Shown piece by piece: positions 1,096 to 53,090 of a stretch of 56,441 nt of DNA. A program made the translations under genes and the position numbers. The DNA comes from Parcubacteria group bacterium GW2011_GWA2_43_13. GTDB taxonomy: Bacteria > Patescibacteriota > Patescibacteriia > UBA9629 > GWA2-43-13. Positions within the stretch are counted from its first letter, which is position 1. The number at the start of each line of letters is the position of its first letter. Below the pieces are notes generated by a model, which was not told the origin of the DNA, did not search any database, and saw only the letters and a program-made list of their open reading frames with translations. The stretch covers positions 1 through 56,441 of the forward strand of contig LCFM01000009.1 in NCBI GenBank assembly GCA_000999025.1, read 5' to 3'.

Positions 1096-1394
1096 ATCTT
1101 TATTGCGTCAATAATGATTGTATTATAGCATACTAAAAGATAAGAATCCAAACGACCTAACACTTCCAAACCTACGAGAGTGGCTGTCGCCGAATGTGAT
1201 TCCGCAATGACCGCGCAAATAACAATTTTTAGATAACCTCACGCTGATTTTTTAGGAAAATTTAGCAAAGAATGACAAAAACACGCCCATTTAGGGTGCT
1301 GTTTTGTTATAAAATTTACTAAAGCAGATTCCATCATTTTTCCCACTAAATTTTACAATTTGGCTAATATTAGCAAATATATGTCTATTTATAC

Positions 1395-1423
1395 TTGACA
1401 ATATCAATTTTACATGATAGAAT
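1395..1423 (+). promoter_or_regulatory. Sigma70-like promoter P1
   Basis: TTGACA 1395-1400, a 17-nt spacer, TG at 1415-1416 (extended -10), TAGAAT 1418-1423. Confidence 0.55.
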
Positions 1424-1488
1424 GACGGGTCAAAATCAAATACAGAAACTTATTCAGACATAACGGGAACTATAAAGAAAATATAGCG

Positions 1489-1517
1489 TTGACAAATATA
1501 GTTAAGTATGTTATAGT
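1489..1517 (+). promoter_or_regulatory. Sigma70-like promoter P2
   Basis: TTGACA 1489-1494, a 17-nt spacer, TG at 1509-1510, TATAGT 1512-1517. It lies 94 bp downstream of P1 in the same orientation. Confidence 0.6.
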
Positions 1518-1523
1518 ATACCT

Positions 1524-2312
1524 GCACAATCAAACAAAATCTTGAAGGAGAGAGCAAGATGACGATTCTTTACACCAAGGTGTTAAGAAGTACTGCTATC
1601 CCCCAAAAGATTGCCCTACTTCTTAGCACCTTATTTGCATCCCCATAGCGCACCACGAATATGCCCACCCGAAGAACGGATTCGTAGATTCGGATGTATT
1701 CGCAGATTAGGATTGCCCCCGTAGCGAGAAACATGGAGAGGAGAGAGGAGAACACTTACCACCTCATGGGATGGTTCACCCCTACCCGCGGGATGGCAAG
1801 GAAAAGCAAGCTCTTTGAGCACAGGCAAACCATATTTATTGGCCTACAAACTCAAAGTTAGCGCTCAACATTGATCTTCTCCATATTCCTCGCTGCGATC
1901 CGAGCTTTATGCAAAGAATCGCAGCGATCACAACATTATATGTGCAAAAAGTTTTGAGCAGATAGCCCCGTCCCTCACTTGGCAACAAGTGCGGGATAGA
2001 GGAGAGAGTATCACTCAAGATTTTATGCCTAACACTGTCACACTCTCATGAAAGTGAGGGTTGAGGATACGGAGTTATACCACTATCCATCCGCCAGCCG
2101 GCGGACGGAACGGCCAACAACTGTACTCCTCCGGTGTGGGTCTGACAGGACCCATGCTGACGTGCGAACTTCCGAACCGAGTTTACTCGGTGAGGAAGGC
2201 AGGCGGAGATGAGATGCTTGCATCTCCACCTACCTTCCTTGTAAGAGGAATGATCTTTGCAACCAATCCACGGCTCGCCATGCGTTTTTTATAAAGCTCG
2301 TGGCGAGTCGTG
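1524..2312 (+). ncRNA. Candidate large structured RNA or long structured 5' leader (unclassified)
   Basis: About 790 nt with no ORF longer than 77 aa on either strand. It is G+C-rich, unlike the AT-rich promoter zone. Hairpins occur in series at 1890-1927, 2090-2105, 2137-2154, 2177-2190, 2194-2238 and 2271-2310, with G.U pairs that only work on the + strand. Confidence 0.35.
1559..1648 (+). CDS. Possible 29-aa small hydrophobic/leader peptide (MTILYTKVLRSTAIPQKIALLLSTLFASP)
   Basis: ATG at 1559 is preceded by GAAGGAGAG (1544-1552), about 35 nt after the predicted P2 start site. TAG at 1646-1648. It is too short for the ORF track. Confidence 0.25.
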   Translation: MTILYTKVLRSTAIPQKIALLLSTLFASP

Positions 2313-2353
2313 GAATTTCTCCACGGCACAACTCCGGAAGGAGTAACGACAAG

Positions 2354-2941
2354 ATGGCCATAAAGGTTGTCTTGGCCGGACCTCCTCGGTCCGGAAAGTC
2401 CTGCTTAAGGGAAGGTCTTAAGCAGGCGATACGACGGATTCCGGGCGCGCCGTATCCCTATGTGATCACGGCTTGCCCGGACGGCGAGGGTTCATGGTTC
2501 CAGGAAACTGTGAACCAAAACCCGGAGCTCGCGGCGGCGTGTAAGGTGGCTTACAAAGCCAAATTCACGCCGGAATTCGTGAAGCGGATCGCAACTTCGG
2601 TCGCGAACTGCCCGCTCGAGCTCACGCTCGTCGACATCGGAGGTATCACCTCCGTTGAAAACGAAGCGATTTGCTCGAGCGCCACTCACATGGTGATCCT
2701 CGCGGGTGATACCGCGAAGTTCGCCGAGTGGCGCGAATTCGCCAAGAAGGTAGGACTCGTGGTGGTAGCGGAAATCTTTTCCGACTACCACGGCACCCAA
2801 GATGTTGTTCCTCAATTGGGCGAGGACAACATCTGGCGGGGATCTGTTCACCACCTCGAGCGGGGTGAACAAGTCGCCGAGCGCCCGACTGTTCAGGCGC
2901 TTGCCCAAATTCTTGTTGAATTGGCAACTCTACAAGAATAA
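2354..2941 (+). CDS. P-loop NTPase of unknown family, adjacent to the Csx3-like gene
   Basis: ATG 2354 is preceded by GGAAGGAG. Walker A is VLAGPPRSGKS and a Walker B/DxxG-like motif is ELTLVDIGG. No further family-specific motif was recognised. Confidence 0.6.
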   Translation: MAIKVVLAGPPRSGKSCLREGLKQAIRRIPGAPYPYVITACPDGEGSWFQETVNQNPELAAACKVAYKAKFTPEFVKRIATSVANCPLELTLVDIGGITSVENEAICSSATHMVILAGDTAKFAEWREFAKKVGLVVVAEIFSDYHGTQDVVPQLGEDNIWRGSVHHLERGEQVAERPTVQALAQILVELATLQE

Positions 2942-3075
2942 TCCTCTGCCCTGCGATTGAATGCGTTACCACATCCAATCGCAGTAGTCATCAACACTAC
3001 CCGCTAAGGCGGGGCCTTTCCCAAGTAGCCATGCTTGGGTGGTAATAAAGGTTTCTCCAATGAGAGGAGAACAAC

Positions 3076-3381
3076 ATGGCTTACTATAAGGTCGAGATAA
3101 TCGAAAGAGGCGAAGCGACAACACTCCGGCTCGCATTCGGCGAGCCCGCACAGAACGACGTGATCGTCCGCGATGCCGTCGCGGCGGTCCAAGCCCTCAA
3201 CCTCGAGGGGGGCAAGGTCATCCGGCTGAACGGGCCTGCGTCTTTGCCGGTGGCGATCGCCATCGGACATGTCGTCGCGCACCTGTACGGTGCCGTGGCG
3301 GCTTTCGACCCGAAACTCGGGAAGTATGTCGTGGCGGTGAGCCACGACCCCGAATTCGAAATCGGACAACTCATCGACTAG
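3076..3381 (+). CDS. csx3: Csx3-like protein (Csx3/Crn3 fold: cA4 ring nuclease / RNA deadenylase family)
   Basis: 101 aa, with GAGAGGAG ahead of the ATG. The core GKVIRLNGPASLPVAIAIGHVVAHLYGAVAAFDPKLGKYVVAVSHDPEFEIGQLID aligns by eye to A. fulgidus Csx3 as I remember it (GVVISGRGPIWLHCFLAHKYHHTPFVAVYDPRLGAVVVQSHSELREGDVIDV). Confidence 0.65.
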   Translation: MAYYKVEIIERGEATTLRLAFGEPAQNDVIVRDAVAAVQALNLEGGKVIRLNGPASLPVAIAIGHVVAHLYGAVAAFDPKLGKYVVAVSHDPEFEIGQLID

Positions 3382-4161
3382 GAGAGTTGCCCATATCCAC
3401 ACGTTTTGCCACCGTTTTAACGAAAATGGTGGGGATAGCCTGCTGGCTTTCGCATGAGGCGCTTTGCAACTATACATCATCAACGCGCGCCTCTTGGTGG
3501 AAGGATATTCGTTCGCGCGAATAACACCTCCGCCTTCTCTCCAGCTTGCAAGTTGAAGCAGAGGGCAAAAAAACTGTTGACAATTAACTTTTAACTGTTA
3601 ACACGTTCTCACTTCAATAATAACTGATCGATCAATACTGCCTTAGAGGATCGCTTCCTCTCCCAAGCATAGGCAACAGAATGGGTAGAACGACACACCC
3701 TTTTATCCCCTCTCAAGAGGGGAACTAAAATATCCTTCCTTGAGGAGGGATAAAGGAAGGTATTATACCTTCTAATCATTCTGCTGTCTGTAATACAGTA
3801 AAAATAGATAATCCAAACAATAAGATGCTGAATAGCGTGCAGAGTGTGAGGTTTAAGAGCCCTCTTGCCCCACATTCTGCAGTTCTGTTCATCATCAAAA
3901 AAGAGGGCATTATATATATGGTTTAAAACATCTTTATCACTAACTCCAAAAGAGGGCTCGCGATTTTTCATCGCACCCTCTTTTCGCTGTTTGCACGCTT
4001 CAAGCAAGCAGTCGTCCACTCTCTTACTAATAAGAGAGAAAAAGAACTTGTTGATAGGCATGGAGATTTCAGAATGAAATCTATCTCACACGATAGATAC
4101 TCTCTCCTCCATTCTGTTCTCCGTGCCTACCAAGATGTTCTTTGATATTACCTCACCCCAA

Positions 4162-4184
4162 CCCTCTCCTTTCAAGGAGAGGGG
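4162..4184. repeat. Palindromic element CCCTCTCC-TTTCAA-GGAGAGGGG (same family as 52876-52966)
   Basis: Inverted repeat read directly from the sequence. It lies just upstream of the PHP gene start. Confidence 0.6.
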
Positions 4185-4219
4185 GGAAGTATGACAACCG
4201 CAAGAAAGGCGGTGATGAT

Positions 4220-5077
4220 ATGTTCGATTTCCAACTACACTCAACTGCTTCGGACGGGACATTGCGCCCGAAAGAAGTGGTTGCGCTCTGTGCGCGCAAT
4301 GGCCTCAAAACCATTGCAATCACCGATCACGACACTGTTGCCGGCGTTGAAGAAGCGCTGACAGCGGGATCGAAATTCGGTGTACGCGTCATTCCAGGGT
4401 GCGAACTTTCGGTGGAACACAATGGCCAGGAGTTCGATATCCTGTGCTATCACATTGACCACCGGAACCTCGCGCTGGTTGAGCGTATGGCGTTTTACCG
4501 CCAAGTGCGCATTGAACGCGCCCACGCGGTAATCGCAAAACTCCAGAAGCAAGGGTTTGCGATCTCGTTTGAGGAGGTCGCAAAGATTGCGGACGGCAGT
4601 ATCGGCAGACCGCATATTGCCAAAGCAATCTTCCTCCACGCCAACAACGTGGAACGGCTTGCACAAATCGGGATCAAAAATCCGTTTGAGTTTGTCGGCG
4701 CGTTTATGACATCAGGAAAAGATGCCTATGTAGAGCGGGAGAAATTCCGTTTTGTAGAGGCGATCTCCCTGGTGCATAACGCCGGCGGTGTTGGCGTGTT
4801 GGCCCACCCGGGCTGGACATTCCGCAACGAATTCGAACAGCGTCTGCCGGCATTTCTTAGCGAGCTAAAATCGCTGGGACTGGATGGCGTGGAAACGTTC
4901 TATCGTACACACGAAGAACGCCACACGCGATTTGTCCATTCCTTGGCGGTTGAGCTTGATTTGAAAGAAACCGCAGGATCCGACTTCCACAATCCCGATG
5001 ATCCGATCTTCCATATGGTGGGAGCGTGGGAATCGTTTGGGATTGAAACCAACTTTGAGTGGATTACTCAACGATAA
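4220..5077 (+). CDS. PHP-domain phosphoesterase (TrpH/YciV, RNase AM-like)
   Basis: MFDFQLHSTASDGTLRPKEVVALCARNGLKTIAITDHDT is the canonical PHP N-terminal HxH...DH metal motif. The start is trimmed to ATG 4220, because the upstream part of the ORF runs through a REP-like palindrome. Confidence 0.85.
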   Translation: MFDFQLHSTASDGTLRPKEVVALCARNGLKTIAITDHDTVAGVEEALTAGSKFGVRVIPGCELSVEHNGQEFDILCYHIDHRNLALVERMAFYRQVRIERAHAVIAKLQKQGFAISFEEVAKIADGSIGRPHIAKAIFLHANNVERLAQIGIKNPFEFVGAFMTSGKDAYVEREKFRFVEAISLVHNAGGVGVLAHPGWTFRNEFEQRLPAFLSELKSLGLDGVETFYRTHEERHTRFVHSLAVELDLKETAGSDFHNPDDPIFHMVGAWESFGIETNFEWITQR

Positions 5078-5144
5078 ATCCGCTCGCGGGGAGAGATGTT
5101 TACGTTTCTCCTCCCCTGCTTTGAGCATATTTTGACCACATGTT

Positions 5145-5172
5145 GTAGAGACGGGGTTAACCCCGTCTCTAC
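5145..5172. repeat. REP-like palindrome GTAGAGACGGGGTTAACCCCGTCTCTAC
   Basis: Perfect 28-nt palindrome, and a member of the GTAGAGACGCCCC...GGGGCGTCTCTAC family seen at least 7 times in the window. Confidence 0.8.
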
Positions 5173-5269
5173 ATGGATGGATATACAAAAAATACTTTCA
5201 AACAAGGGCGCGATCTTTGAAATACCACCCCTTATTCCCTCCTTCAAAAGGATGGGACACTCTGATGAC

Positions 5270-5330
5270 GATGATAGTCGCGAGTGCGGCTGATGGTTAT
5301 ATATCATCATCTGCGCTCGCGGCTATCATC
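5270..5330 (+). promoter_or_regulatory. Long RNA hairpin (26-position stem, 9-nt loop) in the leader of the 5375 gene
   Basis: 5270-5295 pairs with 5305-5330, with 1 mismatch and 3 G.U pairs. The G.U pairs would be C.A mismatches on the other strand. No U-tract follows. Confidence 0.5.
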
Positions 5331-5374
5331 CGATAGCTGAGAATTCTCAACAACATCTCTGGAAGGAGATTTTC

Positions 5375-6679
5375 ATGACACGGTTAGTGTTTGGATCCGG
5401 CCGGTTCGCCGATGTTGTGGCGAACAACCGGAATGATATCATCGTCGGCCCATACGATATGCCGACGAAGTTGGTGGACGTCCGCAAGGATGTCTTGCTG
5501 TGCCTCCCGCAGGAGGTTGGCACGTGGGGCAACTACCCCACGCACCAGGAGAGCTGGCTTGCTCTCCCGTTCGTCGTGACCTGCCACAGTAGCCACACGG
5601 ACGAGGCGGGACTAGATGTCCGCCGCTCAGCGTGGGACGCAATCCCCGTCGCGCAGTGGCCGGCACTCATCGCGAAAGCGGCTGAGTTTGCCGAAGAGTT
5701 CCGCAGCCGTCTAACCGACGCCGGTCTGACGCCCCGCAAGGCGTTCAAGTCGGCAACCCGCGCACTGCAAGACTGCTTGCTGTATGCCGTGGAGCGCAAG
5801 TTCCCGGCACAGCAGGACGTGTTCTTGCAGGACTCCGTGATCGCCCCGCTCGTTGCGGAAGCGAATCGCGGCCGGGCAGGTGAACTCGATCTCGCTGCCG
5901 GTCTCGTGCTTGCCGATACGATCGATGCCCTCGTGGCAAAGATCGCCGGTGAATTCGGTGGGCTCGACGCATGCCGCAAGGCGCTCGGCGAACTCATGAC
6001 CGACTCGCGTGTTGGGCGGGTGATCCTCCTCCCGGAGGGCATTTCGCTTGATCGCGGGGCCGAGCTCGTTGTGGGCGACATCGTGATCGGTGTTCCCGAC
6101 ACGCACGACATGGACATCGTCTCTGTCGTGAATGGTCAGGAAGCGCCAGTGCTCATCCAACTGAAAGACGAGCTGTCGGGTCAACGGCTCGACATCATGG
6201 CGGTCGCCTCGACGCTCGGCGCGAACGAGCAGCTTTCGGGCGGACATCCGGCCTTTCAGTCGGTGGCAGAAATGCTGCTGGCGAATGGTACGGCCCGCAC
6301 CCCCGAGGGCAGCGCGCTTGTCGCGCGGCTCGCAGGCGAAGTCGACCCCGTCGCTCTTGCTCAGAAATACCGGACGGTTGCAAAGGAGTTCTACTCCGAT
6401 GCTTCCGACCGGAAGAGCTGGGCGGCTCGGCGGGCTGGAAACTTGCCGCAGGTCAAGAAAGCGATCCCGCTCTACCGGATCGCTTGTGACCTACTCCCGC
6501 GCGCCGCCTACATGGAACGCGCCGGGAAATTCACCGGCGGATTGGATATCGCCATCCTTGCCGAGTCAGCCGGACTCGGCAAGGTGTACGCCGCGATCCG
6601 ACAAATCATGGATCGCCAGGATGCAACTCAAGACGAGCTTGAGCATATTGCATCGGCGATCGAAACCGTTCTTTCCTAG
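5375..6679 (+). CDS. Hypothetical protein, 434 aa, no recognisable domain
   Basis: Long ORF in the G+C-rich island with GGAAGGAG 8 nt before the ATG. The antisense ORFs across it look like high-GC artefacts. Confidence 0.6.
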   Translation: MTRLVFGSGRFADVVANNRNDIIVGPYDMPTKLVDVRKDVLLCLPQEVGTWGNYPTHQESWLALPFVVTCHSSHTDEAGLDVRRSAWDAIPVAQWPALIAKAAEFAEEFRSRLTDAGLTPRKAFKSATRALQDCLLYAVERKFPAQQDVFLQDSVIAPLVAEANRGRAGELDLAAGLVLADTIDALVAKIAGEFGGLDACRKALGELMTDSRVGRVILLPEGISLDRGAELVVGDIVIGVPDTHDMDIVSVVNGQEAPVLIQLKDELSGQRLDIMAVASTLGANEQLSGGHPAFQSVAEMLLANGTARTPEGSALVARLAGEVDPVALAQKYRTVAKEFYSDASDRKSWAARRAGNLPQVKKAIPLYRIACDLLPRAAYMERAGKFTGGLDIAILAESAGLGKVYAAIRQIMDRQDATQDELEHIASAIETVLS

Positions 6680-6697
6680 AACTTTTGCTGAGCACAA

Positions 6698-6835
6698 TGC
6701 GACCTCGCATGCGCAACGTGCTCTCCTTTCTTCTCCACTGATTGCTCACGCAATAAATGGAGAATCGAAGGAATAACCCGTCACACTCTGCCATGGCAAA
6801 ATGGTCAGAGTTCTCAACGAAAGGCAAAAAGATGG
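6698..6835 (+). repeat. Duplicated intergenic leader module, copy 1 (138 nt)
   Basis: Identical to 7483-7633 except for a 13-nt insertion in copy 2. It contains hairpin 6724-6772 and the palindrome TGCCATGGCA. Confidence 0.85.
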
Positions 6836-7467
6836 GCGCGCTCCTAATAGAAGCGTTGCGCAAATACTTCGTGACGCGACGTACCCGGCGATTCGTCGCC
6901 GATGCATACGCGGGGAAGCTGGGACCAGGACGACTTGTCGTCCTGGTAACCGTGGCGGGATACCGCCTCGCAAGGGTAACGATAAACCCCCACCGCCACC
7001 ACCCCGTCAATGAAAAGCACGTCGTCTACCACGACGATGTGCTGTCGCCATATGATCTCGACATGCTTACAAAACAATATATCGAGGTTACAATGGCAGG
7101 AACGACTGAGGAGGAGCGTGAAGAGCTCCTTGGTCGCTTCCTAAAAGAAAAACGGGTGTGGATTCACCGAGGGGCGAGAGAGAGCGTTTTTTCGCTCTTC
7201 TCAGAAGAAACCCGAGAGGCGACCATGCCCCCAGGGACAAAAATCAACTGGGGATACTGGGATTCCCCTGACGATTTCTTCGACGTTTATGGCATTGTCA
7301 TAAATGGCAATACCCTGGCGATCCGGGCGTTTACGATGCACGGAGAACTGTGCTGGTGGGGGAAAACGACCGACTGGTCGTTTAATCCCAAAAACGTCCT
7401 CTACGGGGAGGGGAGAACCCCGTTGACAACAGAGGAGAAAGATTTATTGAGAAAGCTTTTGCCTTAA
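6793..7467 (+). CDS. Hypothetical protein (about 224 aa; alternative start at 6832)
   Basis: The ORF begins inside repeat copy 1. Its first 14 codons (MAKWSEFSTKGKKM) are nucleotide-identical to those of the next gene. The ATG at 6757 is out of frame in copy 2, so it is unlikely to be the start. Confidence 0.5.
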   Translation: MAKWSEFSTKGKKMGALLIEALRKYFVTRRTRRFVADAYAGKLGPGRLVVLVTVAGYRLARVTINPHRHHPVNEKHVVYHDDVLSPYDLDMLTKQYIEVTMAGTTEEEREELLGRFLKEKRVWIHRGARESVFSLFSEETREATMPPGTKINWGYWDSPDDFFDVYGIVINGNTLAIRAFTMHGELCWWGKTTDWSFNPKNVLYGEGRTPLTTEEKDLLRKLLP

Positions 7468-7482
7468 CACCGCCGTGCACGT

Positions 7483-7633
7483 TGCGACCTCGCATGCGCA
7501 ACGTGCTCTCCTTTCTTCTCCACTGATTGCTCACGCAATAAATGGAGAATCGAAGGAATAGATACGGACACCCACCCGTCACACTCTGCCATGGCAAAAT
7601 GGTCAGAGTTCTCAACGAAAGGCAAAAAGATGG
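7483..7633 (+). repeat. Duplicated intergenic leader module, copy 2 (151 nt, 13-nt insertion at 7561-7573)
   Basis: Compared directly with 6698-6835. Confidence 0.85.
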
Positions 7634-7911
7634 ACGCTGAACGCGGACATCTATTTCTCTTGCGGCTTTTGAAGGATAATGATATCCCCATGGACGGGGA
7701 TGATCTGGAAAAAGCCATTGAGATTGCGTCGCGAAAGTTGCCTTCTGGCGCTTTTGATGAGGCGCAACGCCACTACATAACGCGACATGGGAACTACGTC
7801 TCTCTTGGCTATCTTACATACGCCAAAGGAGTACGGTGGCTTGCCATGTTGCGTCGTGAGTCTGGTCAAGCCGCGTTTGACGCGGCATGCGACGCTTTGC
7901 GTCGCACCTGA
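7591..7911 (+). CDS. Hypothetical protein (106 aa; alternative start at 7630)
   Basis: The ORF starts in repeat copy 2. No domain recognised. Confidence 0.45.
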   Translation: MAKWSEFSTKGKKMDAERGHLFLLRLLKDNDIPMDGDDLEKAIEIASRKLPSGAFDEAQRHYITRHGNYVSLGYLTYAKGVRWLAMLRRESGQAAFDAACDALRRT

Positions 7912-7955
7912 CACCTCCCCCCACCTTCCTCAAGGGTGGAAGAAAGGAAATATCG

Positions 7956-9046
7956 ATGAACGAGCTGTTGCGTCAGGCACTGGGGATTGTCCCCAAGGTT
8001 TCGCGAATTTCTGCCGAAGTCCTCGTCAGTCACATTGACCGTGACGACGAAGTGAGAGCCGCGTGGCTTGCGCTGGTCAGCGGACGGCCGGCGTTCTTCC
8101 TCGGATCTCCCGGGGTTGATAAAACCGGAACAGTTCAGGCGATCGCATCGCGAATCGCCGGAGCCGTGTTCTACGACGAGCTGATGCCGACTGTTGTGTC
8201 GGTGGAACAACTTTTAGTGGAGAGCACCTCCATTGAAGAAGTTCCACTCCCCAACGGTGGCAAGGCGATCCAAACCCGCGACCGCCTTGGCAAAGCGGCA
8301 AACGCGCATCTCGTCTTCGCGGATGAGATTTGGAAGTCCGAGCCCCGCGTGCTCAATATTTTGTTGGATCTCGCGCGCGGTGGCGAAGTTCGGCATGAGG
8401 GAAGGGTTGTCAAAACCCCGCTCCTCGCGTTCCTCGCCGCGAGCAACGAGCTGCCTGATCCCGAGGGCAACCTCGGCGCGCTCTGGTCTCGCATGACGAT
8501 TCGGCTGGTAACACAGCCACTGAATCGAGCGGGAAAATTCCACAGAACATCGTCAACATCGTCCTGGACATCTACCAGGAATTGGCTGACGAATCGTCCG
8601 CGGACTTCGCATGGCTGTGGTCGGACGACCGCCGATTCGGCCGGGTATTCGACATTCTGCAGGCACACGCCTTGCTGGAAGGTCGGACTCGGGTCGAAAA
8701 AACCGATCTGGCGGTGATGGAATGGCTGTGCTGGGACACGCCGGATCAAATCCCGACTGTCCGGGCAAAAATCCTTCCCTACTGCCGAACGCCGCTCATG
8801 GACGCGCAGGAAGCGATGGACGCACTCCTCGCTCCCGGCGGCACCGTGGAGTTGGTTCGTGTTGGAGATCGCGGCAAGGGCGTGCAAGCCATTCAACAAT
8901 GTGAAGCCGCCCTAACGGAGATGAAAAATCTCCAAAACTCCGCCACAGACACGGCGATGTCTGCAAAAATCGGTGAGCTGATCCAACAGCTCGAATCGGT
9001 TAAGCAGGATGTTGTCGCCGTTGTCACCGGGACACGGAGGTTGTAA
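7956..9046 (+). CDS. RavA/MoxR-like AAA+ ATPase, split by a -1 frameshift at 8531-8537 (frame-0 ORF ends at 8717; the -1 frame continues to 9046)
   Basis: Walker A is FFLGSPGVDKTG and Walker B is HLVFADEIWKSEP. The -1 frame carries the RavA-type lid, WLWSDDRRFGRVFDILQAHALLEGRTRVEKTDLAVMEWLCWD (compare RavA SDRRW...LLQASAF..GR...DL...CLW). The joined product is 363 aa. Confidence 0.75.
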
Positions 9047-10668
9047 TGGCAAAAAACATTCGCCCACTCTCGCGACAGGAACTACTGTCGCCTGCGGTGA
9101 CGGATGTGGATGCCTTTACGGCACTCCGATACATCCGTCACCGCGAAACGGTGCCGGCATTACCAGAACTTGAGGACAAGGGAAACCCCCAACTCCCCGG
9201 ATTTGAGTCCGCTCTGCTTGATCTGTACCACGCGCTCTGGTCTCCGGAGCCGCAGGTGAAGGATCAAGTACCGCCGGACAGGCAATACTGGCAGACGCTT
9301 CTTGGTCAGGCAATGGCAACATCTGCCTACCAAGAAACACACGGCTACACCTCCTTGAAGGAGTTTGAGTCCGTCATCGGCACCATCAGCATGGCAGAAA
9401 CCGTGCTTACATTGGTGCCAGAAAAGGACAAAAAACAACTTCAAAAAACCACAGCCGCACAACAAGAAGCCAACCAAATGCAAGAGCAATCGGACCAGGC
9501 GCAAGCCAATGCCGATACTCTCCAGCAGCTGACTGATACCGCGCAAGACGCTGCTGCCTCGGGCAACCACCCGGGCATGTCAGCCCAAGAGGCACAAGCC
9601 CGCGCCAACCAACTTAGCCAGCAAGCGACACAGGCGAAAGCCGATGCCCAAGCTGCGCAAGAGTTGGCGCAAGAATCCGCGTTACAAGCAGAGATCGCCG
9701 CCGAGGAGTTGCTTGGAAAACCCGGAAGCGAGCAAGCGGAGCAAAAACTCCGTGAGCTCACCGGCATTGGCATCCAAGCACTCAAGAAAACCCAAGCCAA
9801 GGTGGAGGAGTTATCCGAAACCATAGAGGCATGGGGACTTGAGCCGGCGGAACTTTCGCAACAGCCCATTCCGGAAGCGCTCGCTCTGCTTGAGCGAATG
9901 CGAAAGAATGAGCACATGCGAAAATTCGCAGCTTTGCTCGGCCGCGTCCGCAGAATCGCGACAAAAAAGGCAAAAAACAAAATCGCCGGCGAGGGCGCGC
10001 GTATGACGAGAACAGAAACCGGGCGCGATATCAAACGCGCGCAACGGTCTGAACTTGTGGCGCTCACCTCGTCGCACCTGCGCTACCCAGCGCTCACGCG
10101 CTGGGCGCATGGCGAGCTTCGGCTCGTTAGCCAACAAACCAAGCAAAAATTAGGCCATGGTCCGGTGATCGTCTGCGAAGACGGATCCGGTTCCATGGAC
10201 GGAGCAAAGCAACAATGGGCCAAGGCAGTCACGCTGTCTTTGGCAACATATGCCAAGCTCCAAAAACGCACCTTTGCCTGGATTCTGTTTGACGCCAGAG
10301 TGCAAAAACAGAAAACATTCCAGGGTGGGAGCGTTTCTCCCAAGAATATGCTGGATATTGTTGAGGCACAGGCTGGTGGAGGAACGGATTTTGAGAAACC
10401 ACTGCGCGCCGCCATGGAGTTGGTAAAGACGCAAGGCCTTAAAAAAGCCGATATCGTGTTTATCACCGATGGCGAATGCGCGGTTTCCGCCTCGTTCCTC
10501 AAAGAATTTCTGGCTGTCAAAGCAGGGTTGGATGTCAACATCATCACTGTTCTGTGTGATGTTGCGTCCGCGACCGCAGAGACGGTCAAGAAGTTCTCAA
10601 CCACGGTCGAAAAGGCCTCCGGCTTCACGGCAGAAGAAGCCGAAAACAAAATCATCAAATATCTATGA
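9046..10668 (+). CDS. ViaA-like VWA-domain protein (partner of the AAA+ ATPase)
   Basis: The start overlaps the upstream stop (TAATG at 9044-9048). The C-terminal VWA domain has the MIDAS motif VIVCEDGSGSM, then ...GGGTDF...ADIVFITDG. The middle region is Q/A-rich and coiled-coil-like. Confidence 0.8.
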   Translation: MAKNIRPLSRQELLSPAVTDVDAFTALRYIRHRETVPALPELEDKGNPQLPGFESALLDLYHALWSPEPQVKDQVPPDRQYWQTLLGQAMATSAYQETHGYTSLKEFESVIGTISMAETVLTLVPEKDKKQLQKTTAAQQEANQMQEQSDQAQANADTLQQLTDTAQDAAASGNHPGMSAQEAQARANQLSQQATQAKADAQAAQELAQESALQAEIAAEELLGKPGSEQAEQKLRELTGIGIQALKKTQAKVEELSETIEAWGLEPAELSQQPIPEALALLERMRKNEHMRKFAALLGRVRRIATKKAKNKIAGEGARMTRTETGRDIKRAQRSELVALTSSHLRYPALTRWAHGELRLVSQQTKQKLGHGPVIVCEDGSGSMDGAKQQWAKAVTLSLATYAKLQKRTFAWILFDARVQKQKTFQGGSVSPKNMLDIVEAQAGGGTDFEKPLRAAMELVKTQGLKKADIVFITDGECAVSASFLKEFLAVKAGLDVNIITVLCDVASATAETVKKFSTTVEKASGFTAEEAENKIIKYL

Positions 10669-10690
10669 GACGCTCCAACGGAGTCGTCTC
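10667..10690. repeat. REP-like palindrome variant GAGACGCTCCAACGGAGTCGTCTC
   Basis: It has the same GAGACG/CGTCTC arms as the REP family and lies right after the VWA gene stop. Two more hairpins follow at about 10695-10730 and 10740-10775. Confidence 0.6.
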
Positions 10691-10859
10691 TACAACATCC
10701 TGCCACGAGGGGAGTTATTACACGACTCCCCTCTCTCCCCGAGCCAACTGTTGTTTAATAGGAGTTGGTTCGGTCAAGGGATTCACCTGTCGTTGCTTTA
10801 CCAACCTACGGTGGCGAAGCAATCTCTTTCAACCCACTTTCTCCTGAAAGGAAATTATC

Positions 10860-13532
10860 GTGGCAGAAGAAAATATCGCCCTCGTCACACCCCAAAAGGG
10901 AAAAAAATGGGATGAGAACCACGAGTGTATCGCCGACCATACAGTCGGTAAAAAAATGCACATCGTGTTCTTGCCGCGAGAAGCACAGCCGGACCAACAG
11001 GTCAGGGTGCGGCTTCAAGAAATTCGGCCTGATGGCCGCGGCAACATGATGTACCGCGGCTTGCCCGCGCCGGTGGAATACATCGAACGCTGGCGCGATA
11101 ACGGCGACGGCACTGCCTCGCGCGTCACCATCTCCCGCGACTGGCTAATGGAAGAACGCGAGGAAGGGGTTATTGAACCCCGCCCGCTTGAAAAGCGGGA
11201 AGGCGAGCCCCTAACCCCAGAAATTACATACTCAGTGGTGTGGGGGGGGAACTCGCTGGAGGACTCTGTGATTGTTGAGACCTCCTCCCGCTGCTATCCG
11301 CAACAGATTGAAGTGGTCAAAGACAATACGATCGTCTGGACCACAGAATCCTACCGCAAGGAGGAGATGGGCAAAAAAACGTTCCATCTCACCCGTCTCT
11401 CCTTAATAGCGAGTACGTTGCGTTCCAGTCGTCTTGCGGTACTGTACACGCCGGACATGGCGGTGAGTGTACGTGTGGGCTACGAAAAAGACAGTGTGCA
11501 AAGAGAGCACACTCACGACACTACTTGGGCTGAAATGCCTGCGTGGTGGCAAGCAGAGCACGAGGCGCAATATCCTCTATGCCTCTGTGGCCGCTACCGC
11601 ATTGAAACGCAAGCCGACGGCTACCCCAAGTGCGAAAAATGTCGCGCCGAGGAAACCTGTGTCCGGTGTTCCAAAAAACCGGTAAAGGTTAAGAACTTCT
11701 CCGGCCGACTGATCTGCACTGTGTGTGAGCCGTACGAGGAGCGCGAGGCCATGATTGAGCGGTCATTCCCTGTTTCCAAACGGGAAGAAATCGCCAATAT
11801 AGCAAAAAAACTCCTCGCCGGCGAAGCATTGCCGCGTGAAACAGGTGAAGTGATCTTGGCGGCAACACTGGATCACATCACCGACGAATCGCGACGCAAC
11901 TCCATCCTGCGCATACAAAAAGAGTACCCTTGGTACTACTTCTGCGAGGATGGAGTGTACGGCTCGCGGTTCCCGAGGGAAACGTTAGAACTGCTCACCT
12001 ACCTTCCCCTTTCAAGTGGAAACGCTCTTGTTGAAATGGTTGCCTGGACCATTGAATGCGACAAGGGTTCCATGCGCGTTGAAGACAGTTTCTTCGCGCA
12101 AAACTTCTACCAGCAGACCCAGATAGCAGGAAAAACAGAAACCCCGACTTTTTCAGAGGCAGGCCTGAATAAGGCCATCGTCGCCGAAAAAATTCGGGGG
12201 AACGAAAGGGATCGTAAAGATTCAGTGCGTCGTTATGCTAAGCTTGCGCAAGCACTTGGCGAACACGACAAACGGATCGAAACGATCCGTGAACGACTCA
12301 ACGCGGATGCGCAGAATTATTCAAGGGCTCTGCAAGAAATTGCAACCATTGAACAGTTCCTGTATAGCATCCAAACGGGCGAAATCTGGCCGGCGGTCCG
12401 TATCAGCCGGCACACAGGCCGCCATTCCAGCCTAACGGTGTGGGCCATTACTGATGATGGATCTCTTCTTGAAGAGTCCAGCAACAGTGATAAAAACACC
12501 GCCGCTTTCGGGGACATCCCAACCTCCACCCTGATCGTGGGCTGGGGGTATGGCTCTCAAGAGAGCCGTTGTAGCGAGAGCTGGCGCATTGAGCGCCGGC
12601 CGGGCGAAAAAGAAAATCGCTGGGAGACCAAACCCGGCGACTACCGCCCGGTAACGGCGAAACAAGTAGAAACACTAAACCGCCTTCGGGGAGAACATAC
12701 AAAGTACTTCTCGGCAGGCGAAGAACTCGGTTGGGATACACGAACTTGGAAACAAGTTACTGTAACAACCGAGGCGTCCCAGTACCTCGTCGGTCAGGAA
12801 GCTACAGACCACGAAGAGATGTTGGCACGAATGCCACTAGATATCTCGGAGTGGTTTGTTGAGTCATCGGAATCCGAGTGGGAGCGTGTGTACACAGTAC
12901 ACCACCGCCCATGCGGATCTTCTCGCCCCAAAGGCGATGACGAACTGCGGTGGATTGAGGCGGCAGTGAAAGCTGAAGAAGGGAAAACCCCTTCACGAGC
13001 TGTTGCCGAAATCGCCCGCGACCTTGCCGAGGTCGCACGACTAACCAAAGGAGCCAAGGGTGGTCATGGAACCATCCGCCTCGAAAAGCGACACGGTCGC
13101 TACCCTTGGCAGAAACGTCGCGAAAACCTCCTCAATATGCTCCACGGTATTGAGGAATACGAGGTAATTGACCGCATCATGGAGCTTCGGATTGGAAGCG
13201 ACCTTGATGCAGTCATCGTTGGAGCAATGGCCTGGCTCGATTCTCGCCGTCTTTCCGTCGTGAGTCCCACGCGGAAAACGGCTGATCCAGCCACCGAGGC
13301 CACAGTCGCGAATGAACCCGCCGAGGGAGTAACCGACAAACCGTCTGAAAAGGCGGGTGTCGTGTTCACCTACCTCGGCAAAATCGGCGGACATCTCCGC
13401 TTCCGGTGTGGCTGTGCCTTCACGGATGCCCTGACAAAAACCGAGGCCCAAAACCTCGGGGACAAAGGATCCGTGGAAATCACCTGCCCGGGTTGCGGAA
13501 AAAACGGCATCGTAAAGAAAGGCGATGCCTAA
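10860..13532 (+). CDS. Large hypothetical protein (890 aa) with clustered zinc-ribbon motifs
   Basis: CLCGRY..KCEKCRAEETCVRCSKK...ICTVCEP gives four Cys pairs mid-protein, and FRCGC...TCPGCGK lies at the C-terminus. No catalytic motif recognised. A GTG start is assumed after AAAGGAAA, so the start is uncertain. Confidence 0.6.
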   Translation: MAEENIALVTPQKGKKWDENHECIADHTVGKKMHIVFLPREAQPDQQVRVRLQEIRPDGRGNMMYRGLPAPVEYIERWRDNGDGTASRVTISRDWLMEEREEGVIEPRPLEKREGEPLTPEITYSVVWGGNSLEDSVIVETSSRCYPQQIEVVKDNTIVWTTESYRKEEMGKKTFHLTRLSLIASTLRSSRLAVLYTPDMAVSVRVGYEKDSVQREHTHDTTWAEMPAWWQAEHEAQYPLCLCGRYRIETQADGYPKCEKCRAEETCVRCSKKPVKVKNFSGRLICTVCEPYEEREAMIERSFPVSKREEIANIAKKLLAGEALPRETGEVILAATLDHITDESRRNSILRIQKEYPWYYFCEDGVYGSRFPRETLELLTYLPLSSGNALVEMVAWTIECDKGSMRVEDSFFAQNFYQQTQIAGKTETPTFSEAGLNKAIVAEKIRGNERDRKDSVRRYAKLAQALGEHDKRIETIRERLNADAQNYSRALQEIATIEQFLYSIQTGEIWPAVRISRHTGRHSSLTVWAITDDGSLLEESSNSDKNTAAFGDIPTSTLIVGWGYGSQESRCSESWRIERRPGEKENRWETKPGDYRPVTAKQVETLNRLRGEHTKYFSAGEELGWDTRTWKQVTVTTEASQYLVGQEATDHEEMLARMPLDISEWFVESSESEWERVYTVHHRPCGSSRPKGDDELRWIEAAVKAEEGKTPSRAVAEIARDLAEVARLTKGAKGGHGTIRLEKRHGRYPWQKRRENLLNMLHGIEEYEVIDRIMELRIGSDLDAVIVGAMAWLDSRRLSVVSPTRKTADPATEATVANEPAEGVTDKPSEKAGVVFTYLGKIGGHLRFRCGCAFTDALTKTEAQNLGDKGSVEITCPGCGKNGIVKKGDA

Positions 13533-13678
13533 TGTTCTTTCCCCCCTCTGCCCACGTGCTTGGCAGAGAAGGGTTTAACCCAAAGCACAAGAGAGGAATG
13601 GTTGGCTTGAGAATAGCAACCATTCCCCCTCTCCTGAAACGCAGAGTATGGTGTTCTGTATTTCAGCCGGAGGGATTC

Positions 13679-14026
13679 ATGAAAAAATTATTGTGGCTGT
13701 CACGCCACAATCCGCTTCCAAAACAAATCGCCGAGCTTCAACGGATCTTTGGAGAGGTTGATGTCCGTCAGGATGTCAATGAGTTCTCCAACGCCGAAGA
13801 AATTTACCGGCGATACCGCAGCGGTGGGTACGACGACATCGTTGTCGTCGCACCCTTGTCCGTCATCGCGCGGTTAATTGACCTTGGCATCAAGCCTCTC
13901 TGGGCACAGATGGACCAAGTCAGTGATCGCAAAAATGCGGATGTGGTTGCAAAAAACCGATTCTATAGGTTCCACCACTTCCGCCGCATCAAAGCCGTGG
14001 TCATGGAGTTTGAGGAGCTTACCTGA
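13679..14026 (+). CDS. Hypothetical small protein (115 aa)
   Basis: ATG 13679 is preceded by GGAGGG. The stop abuts the next gene's start (TGAATG). The upstream part of the tracked ORF overlaps the previous gene and some hairpins. Confidence 0.5.
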   Translation: MKKLLWLSRHNPLPKQIAELQRIFGEVDVRQDVNEFSNAEEIYRRYRSGGYDDIVVVAPLSVIARLIDLGIKPLWAQMDQVSDRKNADVVAKNRFYRFHHFRRIKAVVMEFEELT

Positions 14027-14773
14027 ATGATGAACAAGATTGAAACGCTTCTCAAAAACTTTTCAGAGTTCTGGCTTCACTTCTTTCCGGAAGCCGGAAC
14101 GCTCGACCGCCAGCAGGTGCTGACGGAACTGGACGACGCGGACTTTGGACGGGATAGTACCCGTCCGGATTGCCAACTCGTTAGTTATCAAAACTGTGTC
14201 GCCACTGTGTACGGCGCCTATGAACAGGCGCGTTTCCAAGTGGCGGCCATGGGGCACATATTAAGATCCGTCCGGCAGTTCCCTGCCGGTGGGACACTGG
14301 TGTCCCTCGGTTCAGGACCTGGCTCGTACGAGCTCTGGCTGTTGCTCAACAGCCAGCTCGGGAAAGTGATCCTTGTTGATCACAGTTCCGAGATGCTGGC
14401 GCGGGCCACGAGCATCGCCAAGGAAATCGGCGTGGCGGATCGGTTGCAGACCATCTGCACCGACGCCACGCAAAACAGCATTCCGCCACATACGGCGGAT
14501 GTCATTTTCTCCATCAACGCTCTCCACTGGTCATCCGGCTGGCGAGCGTGGTTGCGAGAAGCGGCGCGGGTTGGTAAACCCGACGCCGAGGTATTCATAA
14601 GCTGCTCGTTGCTCCATCCGCGTAGCAACATCACGCCCGATCAATTCGGGCAAGCAACGCGTGAGTACTTCAATATATCAAAATTCGATATGGTGGTTCC
14701 GCCGCGGCAGATGCCGGACGGACAAACCGCTGTATCGAGCCGCTTCTTCTTTGCGGGAACAAAGAAGCGATAA
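14027..14773 (+). CDS. Class I SAM-dependent methyltransferase
   Basis: Motif I is LVSLGSGPGSYELWLL, the post-I acidic motif is ILVDHSSEML, and DVIFSINALHW is the type-11/12 MTase pattern. Confidence 0.75.
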   Translation: MMNKIETLLKNFSEFWLHFFPEAGTLDRQQVLTELDDADFGRDSTRPDCQLVSYQNCVATVYGAYEQARFQVAAMGHILRSVRQFPAGGTLVSLGSGPGSYELWLLLNSQLGKVILVDHSSEMLARATSIAKEIGVADRLQTICTDATQNSIPPHTADVIFSINALHWSSGWRAWLREAARVGKPDAEVFISCSLLHPRSNITPDQFGQATREYFNISKFDMVVPPRQMPDGQTAVSSRFFFAGTKKR

Positions 14774-15653: not shown

Positions 15654-15725
15654 GGTGGCCAGAGGGAATTGAACCCTCGCTAGCGAGACCACAACCCGCT
15701 GTTCTACCATTAAACTATGGCCACC
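15654..15725 (-). tRNA. tRNA-His (GTG)
   Basis: Hand-folded cloverleaf. The anticodon loop TTGTGGT gives GTG. G-1 pairs with C73, the His identity feature. T-loop is TTCAATT. Confidence 0.85.
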
Positions 15726-15741
15726 CGTCAGATGTCTTTAC

Positions 15742-15813
15742 TGTCCCCGCTAGGGATCGAACCTAGATCAGCAGCTTAGAAGGCTGCAGTTCTATCCATT
15801 GAACTACAGGGAC
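15742..15813 (-). tRNA. tRNA-Arg (TCT)
   Basis: Cloverleaf with acceptor GTCCCTG/CGGGGAC, anticodon loop CTTCTAA and T-arm CTAGG-TTCGATC-CCTAG. Confidence 0.85.
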
Positions 15814-32527: not shown

Positions 32528-33004
32528 GAGGTGGCGGAAACAAAAATCCCCCTAAGGTCGGGGGCGTGGAGAGAACATTATTCTCTTGTGAGAGAGAACA
32601 TAAGAGAGACGATGATCCTCATCGATTCCGATAAGGTATCATCTCCCATATCCTCACTCTCACATCCCCTTCCTTGTACCCGCAAGGAACCCGTTTTATC
32701 AATACGGAGGGTGGAAAACAATAAAGCGCTCGGACTTTAACCGTTGCGGTACAGTGAGGGAATTTCACCCTGCTTTCCTTTAAAATTTTCCGTTACTCAA
32801 AGAACACCTTTATCTTACATCACAGAATATTTTTAGCAATGCACAACTTATCCACATATAAAGACAGTAGCCATATTTATTGATATACTACACACCATAA
32901 AGCACGAACCTCGAAATCCGAAACAAATTTAAAAACACCTCCCCCTACCCCCTTCCCTCGACGAGCTCGGGACAAGCTCTTATAAAGGAGGGGGGGTTCT
33001 CCCT

Positions 33005-38663: not shown

Positions 38664-38735
38664 TGCGCCCAGGAGGATTCGAACCTCCAACCTTATCCTT
38701 AAGAGGGATCTGCTCTACCATTGAGCTATGGGCGC
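38664..38735 (-). tRNA. tRNA-Lys (CTT)
   Basis: Cloverleaf with acceptor GCGCCCA/TGGGCGC, anticodon loop CTCTTAA and T-arm GGAGG-TTCGAAT-CCTCC. There is one G.A mismatch at 27:43. Confidence 0.8.
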
Positions 38736-38761
38736 GCACAACTTTGAATTACGCTTTAAGC

Positions 38762-38787
38762 GTAGAGACGACCCCCTGGGGCGTCTC
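38762..38787. repeat. REP-like palindrome GTAGAGACGACCCCCTGGGGCGTCTC
   Basis: Inverted repeat, read directly. Confidence 0.7.
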
Positions 38788-38805
38788 AATCAATATACTC
38801 TCTTT

Positions 38806-38831
38806 GGGACGCCCCAGGAGGTCGTCTCTAC
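38806..38831. repeat. Degenerate REP-like palindrome GGGACGCCCCAGGAGGTCGTCTCTAC
   Basis: Same family with imperfect arms. Confidence 0.55.
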
Positions 38832-38873
38832 AACGCCATTTCACAAGCCAATACTTATCAAAAACTCGCACAA

Positions 38874-38945
38874 TGCGCCCGGAGGGATTCGAACCCCCAA
38901 TAATTGCTTCGAAGGCAATTGTGATATCCATTTCACTACGGGCGC
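38874..38945 (-). tRNA. tRNA-Arg (TCG)
   Basis: Cloverleaf with acceptor GCGCCCG/CGGGCGC, anticodon stem ATTGC/GCAAT and loop CTTCGAA. Confidence 0.8.
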
Positions 38946-48195: not shown

Positions 48196-48269
48196 TGGGC
48201 GCGACAGGAATCGAACCTGTGACCTTCACAATGTCAATGTGACGCTCTAACCAACTGAGCTACGCGCCC
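48196..48269 (-). tRNA. tRNA-Val (GAC)
   Basis: Cloverleaf with acceptor GGGCGCG/CGCGCCC, anticodon stem TCACA/TGTGA and loop TTGACAT. Confidence 0.85.
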
Positions 48270-48289
48270 TCTGTTCAAACAACCCCATG

Positions 48290-48361
48290 TGCGCCTGCTT
48301 GGATTTGAACCAAGGACCCTCTGTGTATAAGACAGGTGCTCTACCGCTGAGCTACAGGCGC
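48290..48361 (-). tRNA. tRNA-Ile (TAT)
   Basis: Cloverleaf with acceptor GCGCCTG/CAGGCGC, D-arm GCTC-AGCGGTA-GAGC, anticodon loop CTTATAC (34-36 = TAT) and T-arm CTTGG-TTCAAAT-CCAAG. There is one C.A mismatch at 27:43. Confidence 0.7.
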
Positions 48362-52781: not shown

Positions 52782-52866
52782 GCCCAGGTGGCGGAATTTG
52801 GTATACGCGCCAGCTTGAGGTGCTGGTTCCCGCAAGGGATTGGAGGTTCGAGTCCTCTCCTGGGCA
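52782..52866 (+). tRNA. tRNA-Leu (GAG)
   Basis: 85 nt with acceptor GCCCAGG/CCTGGGC, anticodon stem CCAGC/GCTGG, loop TTGAGGT and a long variable arm. Confidence 0.85.
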
Positions 52867-52875
52867 GATAGTCAT

Positions 52876-52966
52876 CCCCTCTCCTTATAAAGGAGAGTGT
52901 CACTTTTTCTCCTCTCCTTTATAAGGAGACCGCCACTTTTCTCCCTCTCCTTTATAAGGAGAGTGT
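52876..52966. repeat. Three tandem ~33-nt units, each carrying the palindrome CTCTCCTTTATAAGGAGAG
   Basis: The palindromes lie at 52879-52897, 52913-52929 and 52945-52963, between tRNA-Leu and tRNA-Val. Confidence 0.8.
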
Positions 52967-52983
52967 AGGGTGAGGTTGAGTAA

Positions 52984-53057: not shown

Positions 53058-53090
53058 CCAAATGAAATCTTATATATCAATATAAACACT

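Follow-up and report, generated by a model that had tools for sequence, protein, structure and literature searches.

The DNA considered here, referred to as the window, is the 56,441 nt of contig LCFM01000009.1 from Parcubacteria group bacterium GW2011_GWA2_43_13. Near its left end, a stretch of about 0.8 kb lies between two promoters and a gene pair that, judged from profile matches, encodes the type III CRISPR accessory protein Csx3-AAA in two separate halves. An earlier note on this DNA had singled out positions 1524–2312 as a candidate large non-coding RNA, describing them as rich in G+C and in hairpins and poor in open reading frames (ORFs). The comparison with other genomes described below leads us to predict that positions 1524–2353 of the + strand specify a non-coding, multi-domain structured RNA of about 830 nt, which runs unterminated into the start codon of the split Csx3-AAA operon. 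The promoters, the parts of the predicted RNA, and the gene pair are as follows.

1395–1423, + strand: upstream promoter, sigma-70-type, TTGACA-17-TAGAAT with an extended −10 TG, 11/12 matches
1489–1517, + strand: proximal promoter, sigma-70-type, TTGACA-17-TATAGT with an extended −10 TG, 11/12 matches
1538–1561, + strand: P1, a 6-bp hairpin that folds alone, with the Shine-Dalgarno (SD)-like loop GAAGGAGAGAGC, which is GA motif 1
1577–1633, + strand: P2, a 16-bp hairpin with a weak U run (AUUUG) at the terminator-like position of relatives
1733–1752, + strand: GA motif 2, AUGGAGAGGAGAGAGGAG, with a 7-nt period by Tandem Repeats Finder (TRF)
1874–1927, + strand: conserved AUCUUCUCCAUAUUCC, then P4 (1890–1927), with 10 outer pairs and −18.3 kcal/mol folded alone
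1944–2028, + strand: P5, a long-range helix of 1944–1958 with 2014–2028, 14/15 pairs
1970–2012, + strand: inside P5, a hairpin (1970–1997) and GA motif 3, AGAGGAGAGAGUAUC (1998–2012)
2036–2172, + strand: core domain, with P6 (2042–2048/2055–2061), P8 (2068–2072/2121–2125), P7 (2090–2095/2100–2105), and P9 (2137–2142/2149–2154), and the conserved joiners GGAGUUAUACCA, ACGGCCAACAAC, and GACGUGCG
2162–2264, + strand: three-way-junction domain, with the closing helix GCGAA..UUCC with GGAA..UUUGC, P10, P11, and then GAUCUUUGCAACC (2252–2264)
2271–2310, + strand: P12, with 12 outer pairs including two G·U, −25.1 kcal/mol folded alone
2331–2353, + strand: SD-covering hairpin, CUCC-GGAA-GGAG over the SD AAGGAG (2337–2342), then a spacer to ATG 2354
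2354–2941, + strand: P-loop NTPase of 195 aa, predicted AAA half of split Csx3-AAA (PADLOC PDLC01045, E = 1e-58, profile positions 107–285)
3076–3381, + strand: Csx3-like protein of 101 aa, predicted Csx3 half (PADLOC Csx3-AAA, E = 6e-17, profile positions 10–99)

The longest ORF wholly within 1524–2312 encodes 77 aa (2061–2294, + strand), in agreement with the earlier note. The only longer ORF that touches the region, with 213 aa and a GTG start (2300–2941), is an in-frame upstream extension of the downstream gene, whose start is ATG 2354 (MAIKVVLAGPP in more than 1000 homologues), eight nt after the SD GGAAGGAG. The nine ORFs of 43–77 aa in the stretch have no Pfam match at E ≤ 1. The strong promoters noted previously are both present and point inward, and transcription is predicted from the proximal one to start near 1524. 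No terminator-like site was found on the + strand within 1524–2353, and the RNA would run into ATG 2354. The description as G+C-rich holds relative to the promoter region (31–37% G+C) but not in absolute terms, since the stretch has 42–53%, below the 55–59% of the downstream genes.

The minimum free energy of 1524–2353 is −307.5 kcal/mol, compared with −230.9 ± 8.1 kcal/mol for 20 dinucleotide shuffles (z = −9.5). The minus strand folds nearly as well (z = −8.7), so fold energy alone gives no choice of strand. The six helices that had been proposed all fold as described when folded alone. These are P4 and P12, P7 (2090–2105; 6 bp, −10.2 kcal/mol), P9 (2137–2154; 7 bp, −10.2 kcal/mol), P10 (2177–2190; 5 bp, −5.7 kcal/mol), and P11 (2194–2238; 16 pairs and two C·A positions, −24.9 kcal/mol). 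Hairpins beyond these were found at 1538–1561, 1577–1633 (16 bp), 1944–1958/2014–2028, 2042–2061, and 2068–2072/2121–2125.

Homologous loci, designated here by L numbers, were fetched by alignment of the P-loop protein, 80 from species-representative genomes and 80 from metagenomes. They are mostly metagenome-assembled genomes of Patescibacteria, and the more distant ones come from cyanobacteria, Poribacteria, Entotheonella, and relatives of Beggiatoa. As all of them were collected through the protein, with no RNA search independent of the operon, the position of the RNA relative to the operon is biased in this sample. One locus, L081, comes from the window's own organism; the RNA segment compared shows no differences, and the P-loop proteins are 100% identical. 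Searches by blastn and nhmmer with window 1400–2353 against the 160 loci returned only L081 and a weak match to L031, where nhmmer aligns the P2 region with E = 2e-4, so homology was traced by motifs and structure. MAFFT alignments of the whole RNAs or of the core were structurally inconsistent and were replaced by a single-sequence covariance model with its own alignment. A regular expression for the core joiners, applied across all loci, was too permissive and gave no further clear members.

Relatives of the RNA are found upstream of the same gene pair, and on the same strand, in other Patescibacteria-type genomes. Their architecture is kept while the primary sequence is almost unconserved. 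The window and L031 have in common an 11/12 promoter (1185–1213 in L031, before its homologous RNA), an identical CUUGAAGGAGAGAGCAAG hairpin, and ACACCAAGG followed by a long hairpin; further along, both have AGGAGAGAG, then GGAGUAAUACCA, a hairpin, and ACGGCAAACAAC. In L113, L021, and L135, direct reading of the loci likewise shows strong promoters in tandem before the homologous RNAs. The window is collinear with L031, L061, L113, and L131, and the blocks follow one another in the same order in the window, L031, L061, and L131. Window 1640–1870 has no detectable homologue except for one 20-nt motif. We take the window RNA to be one member of a divergent, modular family.

The RNAs typically have three to four copies of the purine-rich motif GAGGAGAGAG. 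The 8-mer GGAGAGAG occurs at 0.32 per kb in the sense direction within 2.5 kb upstream of the P-loop gene, compared with 0.04 antisense and 0.04 elsewhere, a sense-strand enrichment of 8-fold over 161 loci. There are typically three or four copies, 125–310 nt apart, and those of the window are at −807, −614, and −353. The block of GA motif 2 is also present in L006 (95.7% over 23 nt) and L113, with AUGGAGAGGAG as the text common to these two loci and window 1733, and the 15-mer AGAGGAGAGAGUAUC of GA motif 3 is common to the window, L148, L146, L160, and L102. The 5′-most copy of GGAGAGAG is often located in a hairpin loop, the stem of which differs between genomes. For P1 in 12 homologues, 77.5% of cells pair, compared with 46% for shuffled sequences and 32–39% with slid partners, and 9 of the 10 pairs are changed on both sides, although the seeds were picked by eye, which favours pairing. 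Searched over 867 kb, the covariance model of P1, R1, has 17 matches, every one of them on the + strand and 5′ of the P-loop gene, with no second match in the 56-kb window. A 29-aa ORF (MTILYTKVLRSTAIPQKIALLLSTLFASP; window 1559–1648) begins 8 nt past the GGAG of the P1 loop, with good SD spacing. It is absent from L031, L013, and L009, and it is probably fortuitous because there and in other relatives no start codon follows the motif. A leader peptide at this position was thus rejected as not conserved.

The core model, R3, was built from window 2036–2172 alone, with its four helices taken from a three-way comparison. It matches L031 1652–1788 (33.9 bits, E = 5e-7) and L131 3320–3449 (18.9 bits, E = 0.011, or 0.001 in a smaller search). 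These two significant hits beyond the window both lie upstream on the + strand; no other hit was convincing, and the weak ones, at chance level, fall on both strands. In P6–P9, 94% of cells pair, compared with 31–49% when the partners are slid by 1–3 columns, and 18 of the 24 pairs are changed on both sides among three genomes, the alignment being fitted to the model itself. The P5 helix has compensatory changes in L031 and L061, and partly in L026. P4 keeps its position while its stem sequences differ. Its counterparts are CAUAUUCC then AGCUC/GAGCU in L031 and AUCUUCUCCAGAUUU then CUCCC/GGGAG in L113, and AUCUUCUCCAKAUU precedes the hairpin, by hand comparison of the window, L031, and L113 only. 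The closing helix and the two hairpin arms of the three-way junction are also present in L031 and L061, by hand comparison without a formal covariation test. In the window and these two loci, the junction begins after GAGUGCG or GACGUGCG and ends in (C)UUUG(A)CAAC, a block also found in L026, L131, L091, and the L025 group.

The covarying helices include G·U pairs, which would be C·A on the opposite strand. Together with the + strand motifs and the R1 and R3 hits, they bear out the earlier proposal that selection acts on the + strand RNA. P1, the core, and P5 all recur with compensatory changes in other genomes. We conclude from these comparisons that the element is a structured RNA with helices kept by compensatory changes in independent genomes.

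Other members of the family add to this picture. The L025 subfamily, which is better sampled, shares GA motifs and the 3′ block with the window RNA and has an extra, well-conserved 5′ domain ending in a strong terminator-like hairpin. A conserved domain of ~230 nt follows the first GA motif in L025 (3250–3530), L148 (200–440), L146, L160, L093, L128, L106, L135, and L020. It contains ..CAAGCUGAGGUCUGUUUG..CCGCAUGAA..GCUACUGAUC.. and ends in the hairpin GGCGAUUGGGAGAUCUCUUC..GAAGAUAUCUCUCAGUCGCC with a U run, a layout that appears riboswitch-like or small RNA (sRNA)-like; it has no Rfam match. In L113 (2560–3260), all three copies of the motif have GGAUAGAG in place of GGAGAGAG, and a copy follows each of two strong promoters arranged in tandem. 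The island content of this locus is the closest to that of the window (PHP, u434, u206, and MoxR).

A cmscan of the whole window against Rfam 15 at gathering score gave only tRNAs and one AdoCbl-II riboswitch, all elsewhere. At E ≤ 10, positions 1100–4200 gave only far sub-threshold matches to hairpin-shaped microRNA models, and the homologous RNAs in 16 other loci belong to no Rfam family. The papers searched on Patescibacteria RNAs, or on RNAs beside Csx3, contain no description of such an RNA. The family is absent from Rfam 15 and from these papers. Membership in GOLLD, ROOL, OLE, raiA, HEARO, PyrR, CsrB-type RNA, or Y RNA was rejected, as there was no Rfam match. Specifically, the RNA is not GOLLD, ROOL, or OLE, the class with which it had been compared, because no Rfam 15 family matches it. 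The large ‘ornate’ bacterial RNAs include GOLLD, ROOL, OLE, and raiA (Rfam; PMC12286853). The window RNA is similar to them in having several hundred nt, many covarying helices, no coding capacity, and an unknown biochemical function, and it was found by the same reasoning, from a G+C-rich, ORF-free intergenic stretch. However, it is far less conserved in sequence, modular, and variable in length, it has a fixed position immediately before one operon and, in the window, lacks its own terminator, and no link to phage or mobile DNA was found. The idea that it travels with mobile DNA did not hold up, as neither the gene pair nor the RNA was found in viral contigs or phage records. Alignment of the protein finds no relative in IMG/VR, and the phage GenBank collection gave no hit. 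The 15-mer AGAGGAGAGAGTATC occurs in 50 viral contigs, all apparently chance or coding matches without motif clustering. A mobile or phage origin was rejected on these grounds.

The gene pair that follows the RNA is, as the profile matches indicate, Csx3-AAA split into two genes. The Csx3-like protein also matches Pfam Cas_csx3 (E = 9e-5) and AF_1864 Csx3/Crn3 (E = 0.01, full length). The P-loop protein has more than 1000 homologues at 70–84% identity, and the identity of the pair is 70–84% in Patescibacteria-type genomes and 50–65% in other phyla, including cyanobacteria. As modelled by AlphaFold (pLDDT 88), the P-loop protein most resembles SIMIBI GTPases (such as GPN-loop Npa3, FtsY/SRP54, and MinD), with a template-modelling (TM) score of about 0.45 only. 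Where the contig extends far enough to tell, the two genes are nearly always neighbours, and either one may come first. Among the accessory families of type III CRISPR systems, Csx3-AAA and AAA-Csx3 are fusions without an assigned role (PMC6546367, clusters 35 and 67; Slr7080 in 10.1101/2020.07.02.184192). Both window genes match halves of the profile, and both gene orders occur, as in the fusions. In contrast to the fusions, the protein is split into two genes here, and the pair co-occurs with MoxR and VWA. No associated RNA is reported for the family in the papers searched. No CRISPR array was seen, as nothing in the window scores at the gathering threshold of an Rfam CRISPR family, and no Cas family but Csx3 was found by Pfam, NCBIfam, and PADLOC among the genes screened at 190–22770, those beyond 22770 being unscreened.

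What is the function of the RNA? Our first choice, which we hold tentatively, is that it acts mainly in cis, as a long leader of the split Csx3-AAA operon. The two near-consensus promoters would drive the RNA, and the leader would determine what share of this strong transcription ends up as protein. In relatives, the 5′ module, P1 with its SD-like GA loop and then a long hairpin, would be a terminator-type attenuator. The further copies of GAGGAGAGAG and the conserved core are candidate binding sites for one common factor, and P12 and the CUCC-GGAA-GGAG hairpin (−7.2 kcal/mol for 2325–2345) may hide the ribosome-binding site. The most likely factor would be the operon's own Csx3-like protein, giving feedback control; the Csx3 family is described, in PMC6546367 and in works cited there, as binding short purine RNA and cyclic tetra-adenylate. 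The arrangement is that expected in cis, since every relative found is upstream on the same strand, and the RNA is contiguous with the operon, without a terminator, in the window and the L025 group.

The evidence for attenuation comes from the relatives. A terminator-like hairpin follows the first motif in 23/44 loci by a crude scan, compared with 20% of control segments, and in more loci by eye. A long hairpin with UUUUU is present at the P2 position in L031, L102, L131, L040, L009, and the L025 group. The 5′ arm of the terminator-like hairpin contains the exact complement of the motif in 11/44 loci, compared with a background of 3.3%, which suggests an antiterminator-like layout. Leaders with protein-mediated attenuation and repeated purine-rich binding hairpins are well known, such as the PyrR loops in the pyr leader (RF00515) and the CsrA-binding GGA hairpins. 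The window RNA is similar to these in having several copies of the purine-rich motif per transcript, with at least one, that of P1, in a hairpin loop, and in preceding candidate regulated genes. Furthermore, the first copy in relatives is followed by the terminator-like hairpin, and in a subset the motif is complementary to the terminator arm. However, the motif sequence is different, with no Rfam match to PyrR or CsrB/RsmZ, and the window RNA exceeds those leaders many times in length and has a conserved core of several helices to which nothing in them corresponds.

Many relatives carry a 117-nt SD-proximal leader (‘Module C’, model R2), with three hairpins and the loop GCCRAU, before the SD of the P-loop gene. 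Matches to R2, the best with E = 2e-32, lie immediately 5′ of the P-loop start in at least 25 loci, and the loci with this leader include L001, L007, L017, L030, L033, L089, L093, L100, L102, L116, L118, and L120. It has a long hairpin (CUCACGAG..CGUGAGAGG), a small hairpin (GUCGCA-NNN-UGCGAC) overlapping the 3′ arm of the long one, and a third hairpin (UCGCC-GGCCGAU-GGCGA) before the SD. Compensatory changes are seen in 14 of its 22 pairs, and it is not in Rfam. The competing GCGAC segments look like a switch. P12 of the window occupies the place of the long hairpin of this leader, and CCACGG, which repeats at 2321–2326, could compete for the 3′ arm of P12.

Several observations weigh against a leader function. 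P2 of the window has no good U run and no CUCUCUCC complement, and P2 as a terminator whose arm pairs with the P1 loop was rejected, since the layout of the 11/44 relatives is absent from the window. R2 finds nothing in window 2200–2353, even at E ≤ 10. P12 can thus not be called a homologue of the 117-nt leader, and membership of P12 and the SD region (2265–2353) in it was also rejected. The closest AAA relatives, L001, L082, and L012 (81–82% identity), do not have the long RNA, and their leader is ~150 nt or less. In L031, contiguity fails. More than 2 kb separate the homologous RNA from the operon there, and the interval contains a probable coiled-coil ORF on the opposite strand, so this RNA cannot be a simple 5′ untranslated region (UTR). 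In L013, L018, L026, L061, and L131, the RNA and the first gene are 0.6–1 kb apart, with small ORFs in the gap. A length of 0.8 kb with a conserved multi-helix core far exceeds the needs of known attenuators, and the covariation of that core comes from three sequences only.

The RNA in L031 has a further feature at its 3′ end, which speaks for a role in cis. A hairpin with the loop CUAGA(U/G)AAA closes the RNA in L031 (2020–2050) and in L061 (about 3500–3530), and L031 has a second copy at 4165–4198, directly before the SD of the Csx3-like gene, as though the leader's end had been duplicated when ~2 kb was inserted.

The second possibility, to which we give less credence than to a cis-acting leader, is that the element is a free-standing, trans-acting large structured RNA, which would be a subunit, scaffold, or ligand of proteins encoded nearby. 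The partners would be the AAA and Csx3-like proteins, perhaps with MoxR, VWA, and unknown island proteins, the GA motifs would be protein-binding sites, and in the window the RNA would merely be joined to the mRNA or released from it by cutting. Near-consensus promoters in tandem, like those of stable RNAs, and a multi-helix core with conserved single-stranded joiners would fit such an RNA, as would the terminator-like hairpin after the 5′ module in many relatives, the detachment from the operon in L031, and the gaps in the five other loci. All three copies of the motif in L113 have changed together to GGAUAGAG, which points to one shared partner. The co-occurrence of MoxR, VWA, and u206 in about 20 loci also speaks for it. 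There may also be processing of the transcript. L120 has a hammerhead type III-like sequence at 1062–1116 (CUGAUGAG-UCC-GAAA-GGA-CGAAAC), ~135 nt before the P-loop start and just upstream of the SD-proximal leader. Its Rfam score of 44.6 bits (E = 8e-9) is near, but below, the gathering score of 48.5. The same core is found in L112 (about 730–760) and L110 (about 1568). This suggests that the 5′ end of the mRNA is made by self-cleavage in some genomes.

On the other side, the window has no 3′ terminator for a trans-acting RNA, and the closest AAA relatives do not have the RNA. In no locus is the element downstream or elsewhere; it always precedes the operon on its strand, although this regularity is biased by collection of the loci through the protein. 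Unlike most ribonucleoprotein (RNP) RNAs, it is poorly conserved in primary sequence. No RNA-binding domain besides Csx3 was identified. Ro60/Y RNA-type ribonucleoproteins have a vWA module, as in Rsr-Y RNA, and the window similarly has a structured RNA beside a VWA-domain protein, here with a MoxR ATPase as well. However, no TROVE domain was detected in the VWA protein, only VWA_2/CoxE at residues 370–478, and it has no PDB relative by sequence. There is no Y_RNA match, the window RNA is about eight times longer, and the VWA and MoxR genes are 5–7 kb away. The analogy was rejected for lack of the TROVE domain. A more specific proposal, and a more doubtful one, is that a stable, abundant trans RNA belongs, as RNA component or as ligand, to an AAA/Csx3-like (plus MoxR-VWA) machine that works independently of CRISPR and is widespread and strongly conserved among candidate-phyla-radiation bacteria; the GAGGAGAGAG motifs would provide docking sites for the Csx3-like protein.

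We consider it unlikely that the stretch is a composite, with a short 5′ sRNA or attenuator (P1 and P2, about 110 nt), an unrelated, fast-evolving structured spacer, and an ordinary structured 5′ UTR, so that only the ends are functional. The modules (5′ module, GA motifs, core, and SD-proximal leader) are indeed shuffled among loci, with lengths of 0.15–1.3 kb, and no homologue was detectable for the middle (1640–1870), apart from the 20-nt motif. However, the core (2036–2172) and P5, which lie in the middle to 3′ part, covary across genomes, and the same block order is found in the window, L031, L061, and L131. Finally, a decayed protein-coding gene or other non-functional remnant, with hairpins arising from composition, is very improbable: the stretch is at the edge of a G+C-rich gene island, beside a toxin–antitoxin pair, and its minus strand is nearly as stable, but its ORF fragments lack Pfam matches, the helices are kept by compensatory changes, the motif enrichment is strand-specific, the consensus promoters point inward, an upstream ORF-free stretch of 1276 nt (ORFs ≥ 90 aa) covers the RNA in L113, and no homologous locus has an intact collinear ORF, with the only two L031 ORFs of at least 80 aa over the RNA (1720–1965, + strand, 81 aa; 1942–2244, − strand, 100 aa) neither compared with the window nor run against Pfam.

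The gene pair is the beginning of an island in a G+C-rich block at 2354–14773, in which the pair is followed by these genes and by unknown proteins, one of them of 890 aa.

4142–5077: PHP phosphoesterase
7887–8717: MoxR
9046–10668: VWA
14027–14773: methyltransferase

In nearly all Patescibacteria loci, the P-loop gene is 5–20 percentage points richer in G+C than the surrounding locus. The spacer between the two genes of the pair (2942–3075) has three hairpins, CUGCGAUUG..CAAUCGCAG, CCCGC-UAAG-GCGGG, and CCCAAG..CUUGGG, the last of which resembles the GCUUGGG-CCAAC-CCCAAGC hairpin that other loci have before the SD. ORFs are few and hairpins many in the 220 nt that follow the Csx3-like gene (3382–3600), and there is a strong-looking promoter-like site, ttgacaattaac, at about 3577 (+ strand). 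An A+T-rich patch between the Csx3-like and PHP genes contains a 150-aa ORF (3609–4061, − strand) with no match in Pfam, NCBIfam, or PADLOC. Immediately to the left of the RNA promoters, and transcribed away from them, are genes for a HepT-like RNase toxin (190–621, − strand) and an MNT nucleotidyltransferase antitoxin (643–1095, − strand), with Pfam E values of 6e-22 and 2e-16. The AdoCbl-II riboswitch (32716–32795, − strand, 66.5 bits) and ten tRNA genes in four clusters (15654–15813, 38664–38945, 48196–48361, and 52782–53580) are ordinary chromosomal features.

The genomes of candidate-phyla-radiation bacteria are tiny, and only a few regulatory or structural RNAs are known from them. A long covarying RNA recurs here before one of the most conserved accessory gene pairs of these bacteria, which encodes a split form of a type III CRISPR accessory protein with no known function, even in hosts that have CRISPR. 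The comparison yields concrete motifs, the loop GAAGGAGAGAGC and the joiners GGAGUNAUACCA and ACGGCNAACAAC of the core, as well as seed sequences for building the family. As a leader, the RNA would be a control element of unusual complexity, in which SD-like GA motifs are repeated. As a partner RNA, it would define a new RNP. Should the proposal of a stable trans RNA be true, it would represent a new class of large bacterial ribonucleoprotein RNA and would give the first functional clue for the CRISPR-detached Csx3-AAA family.

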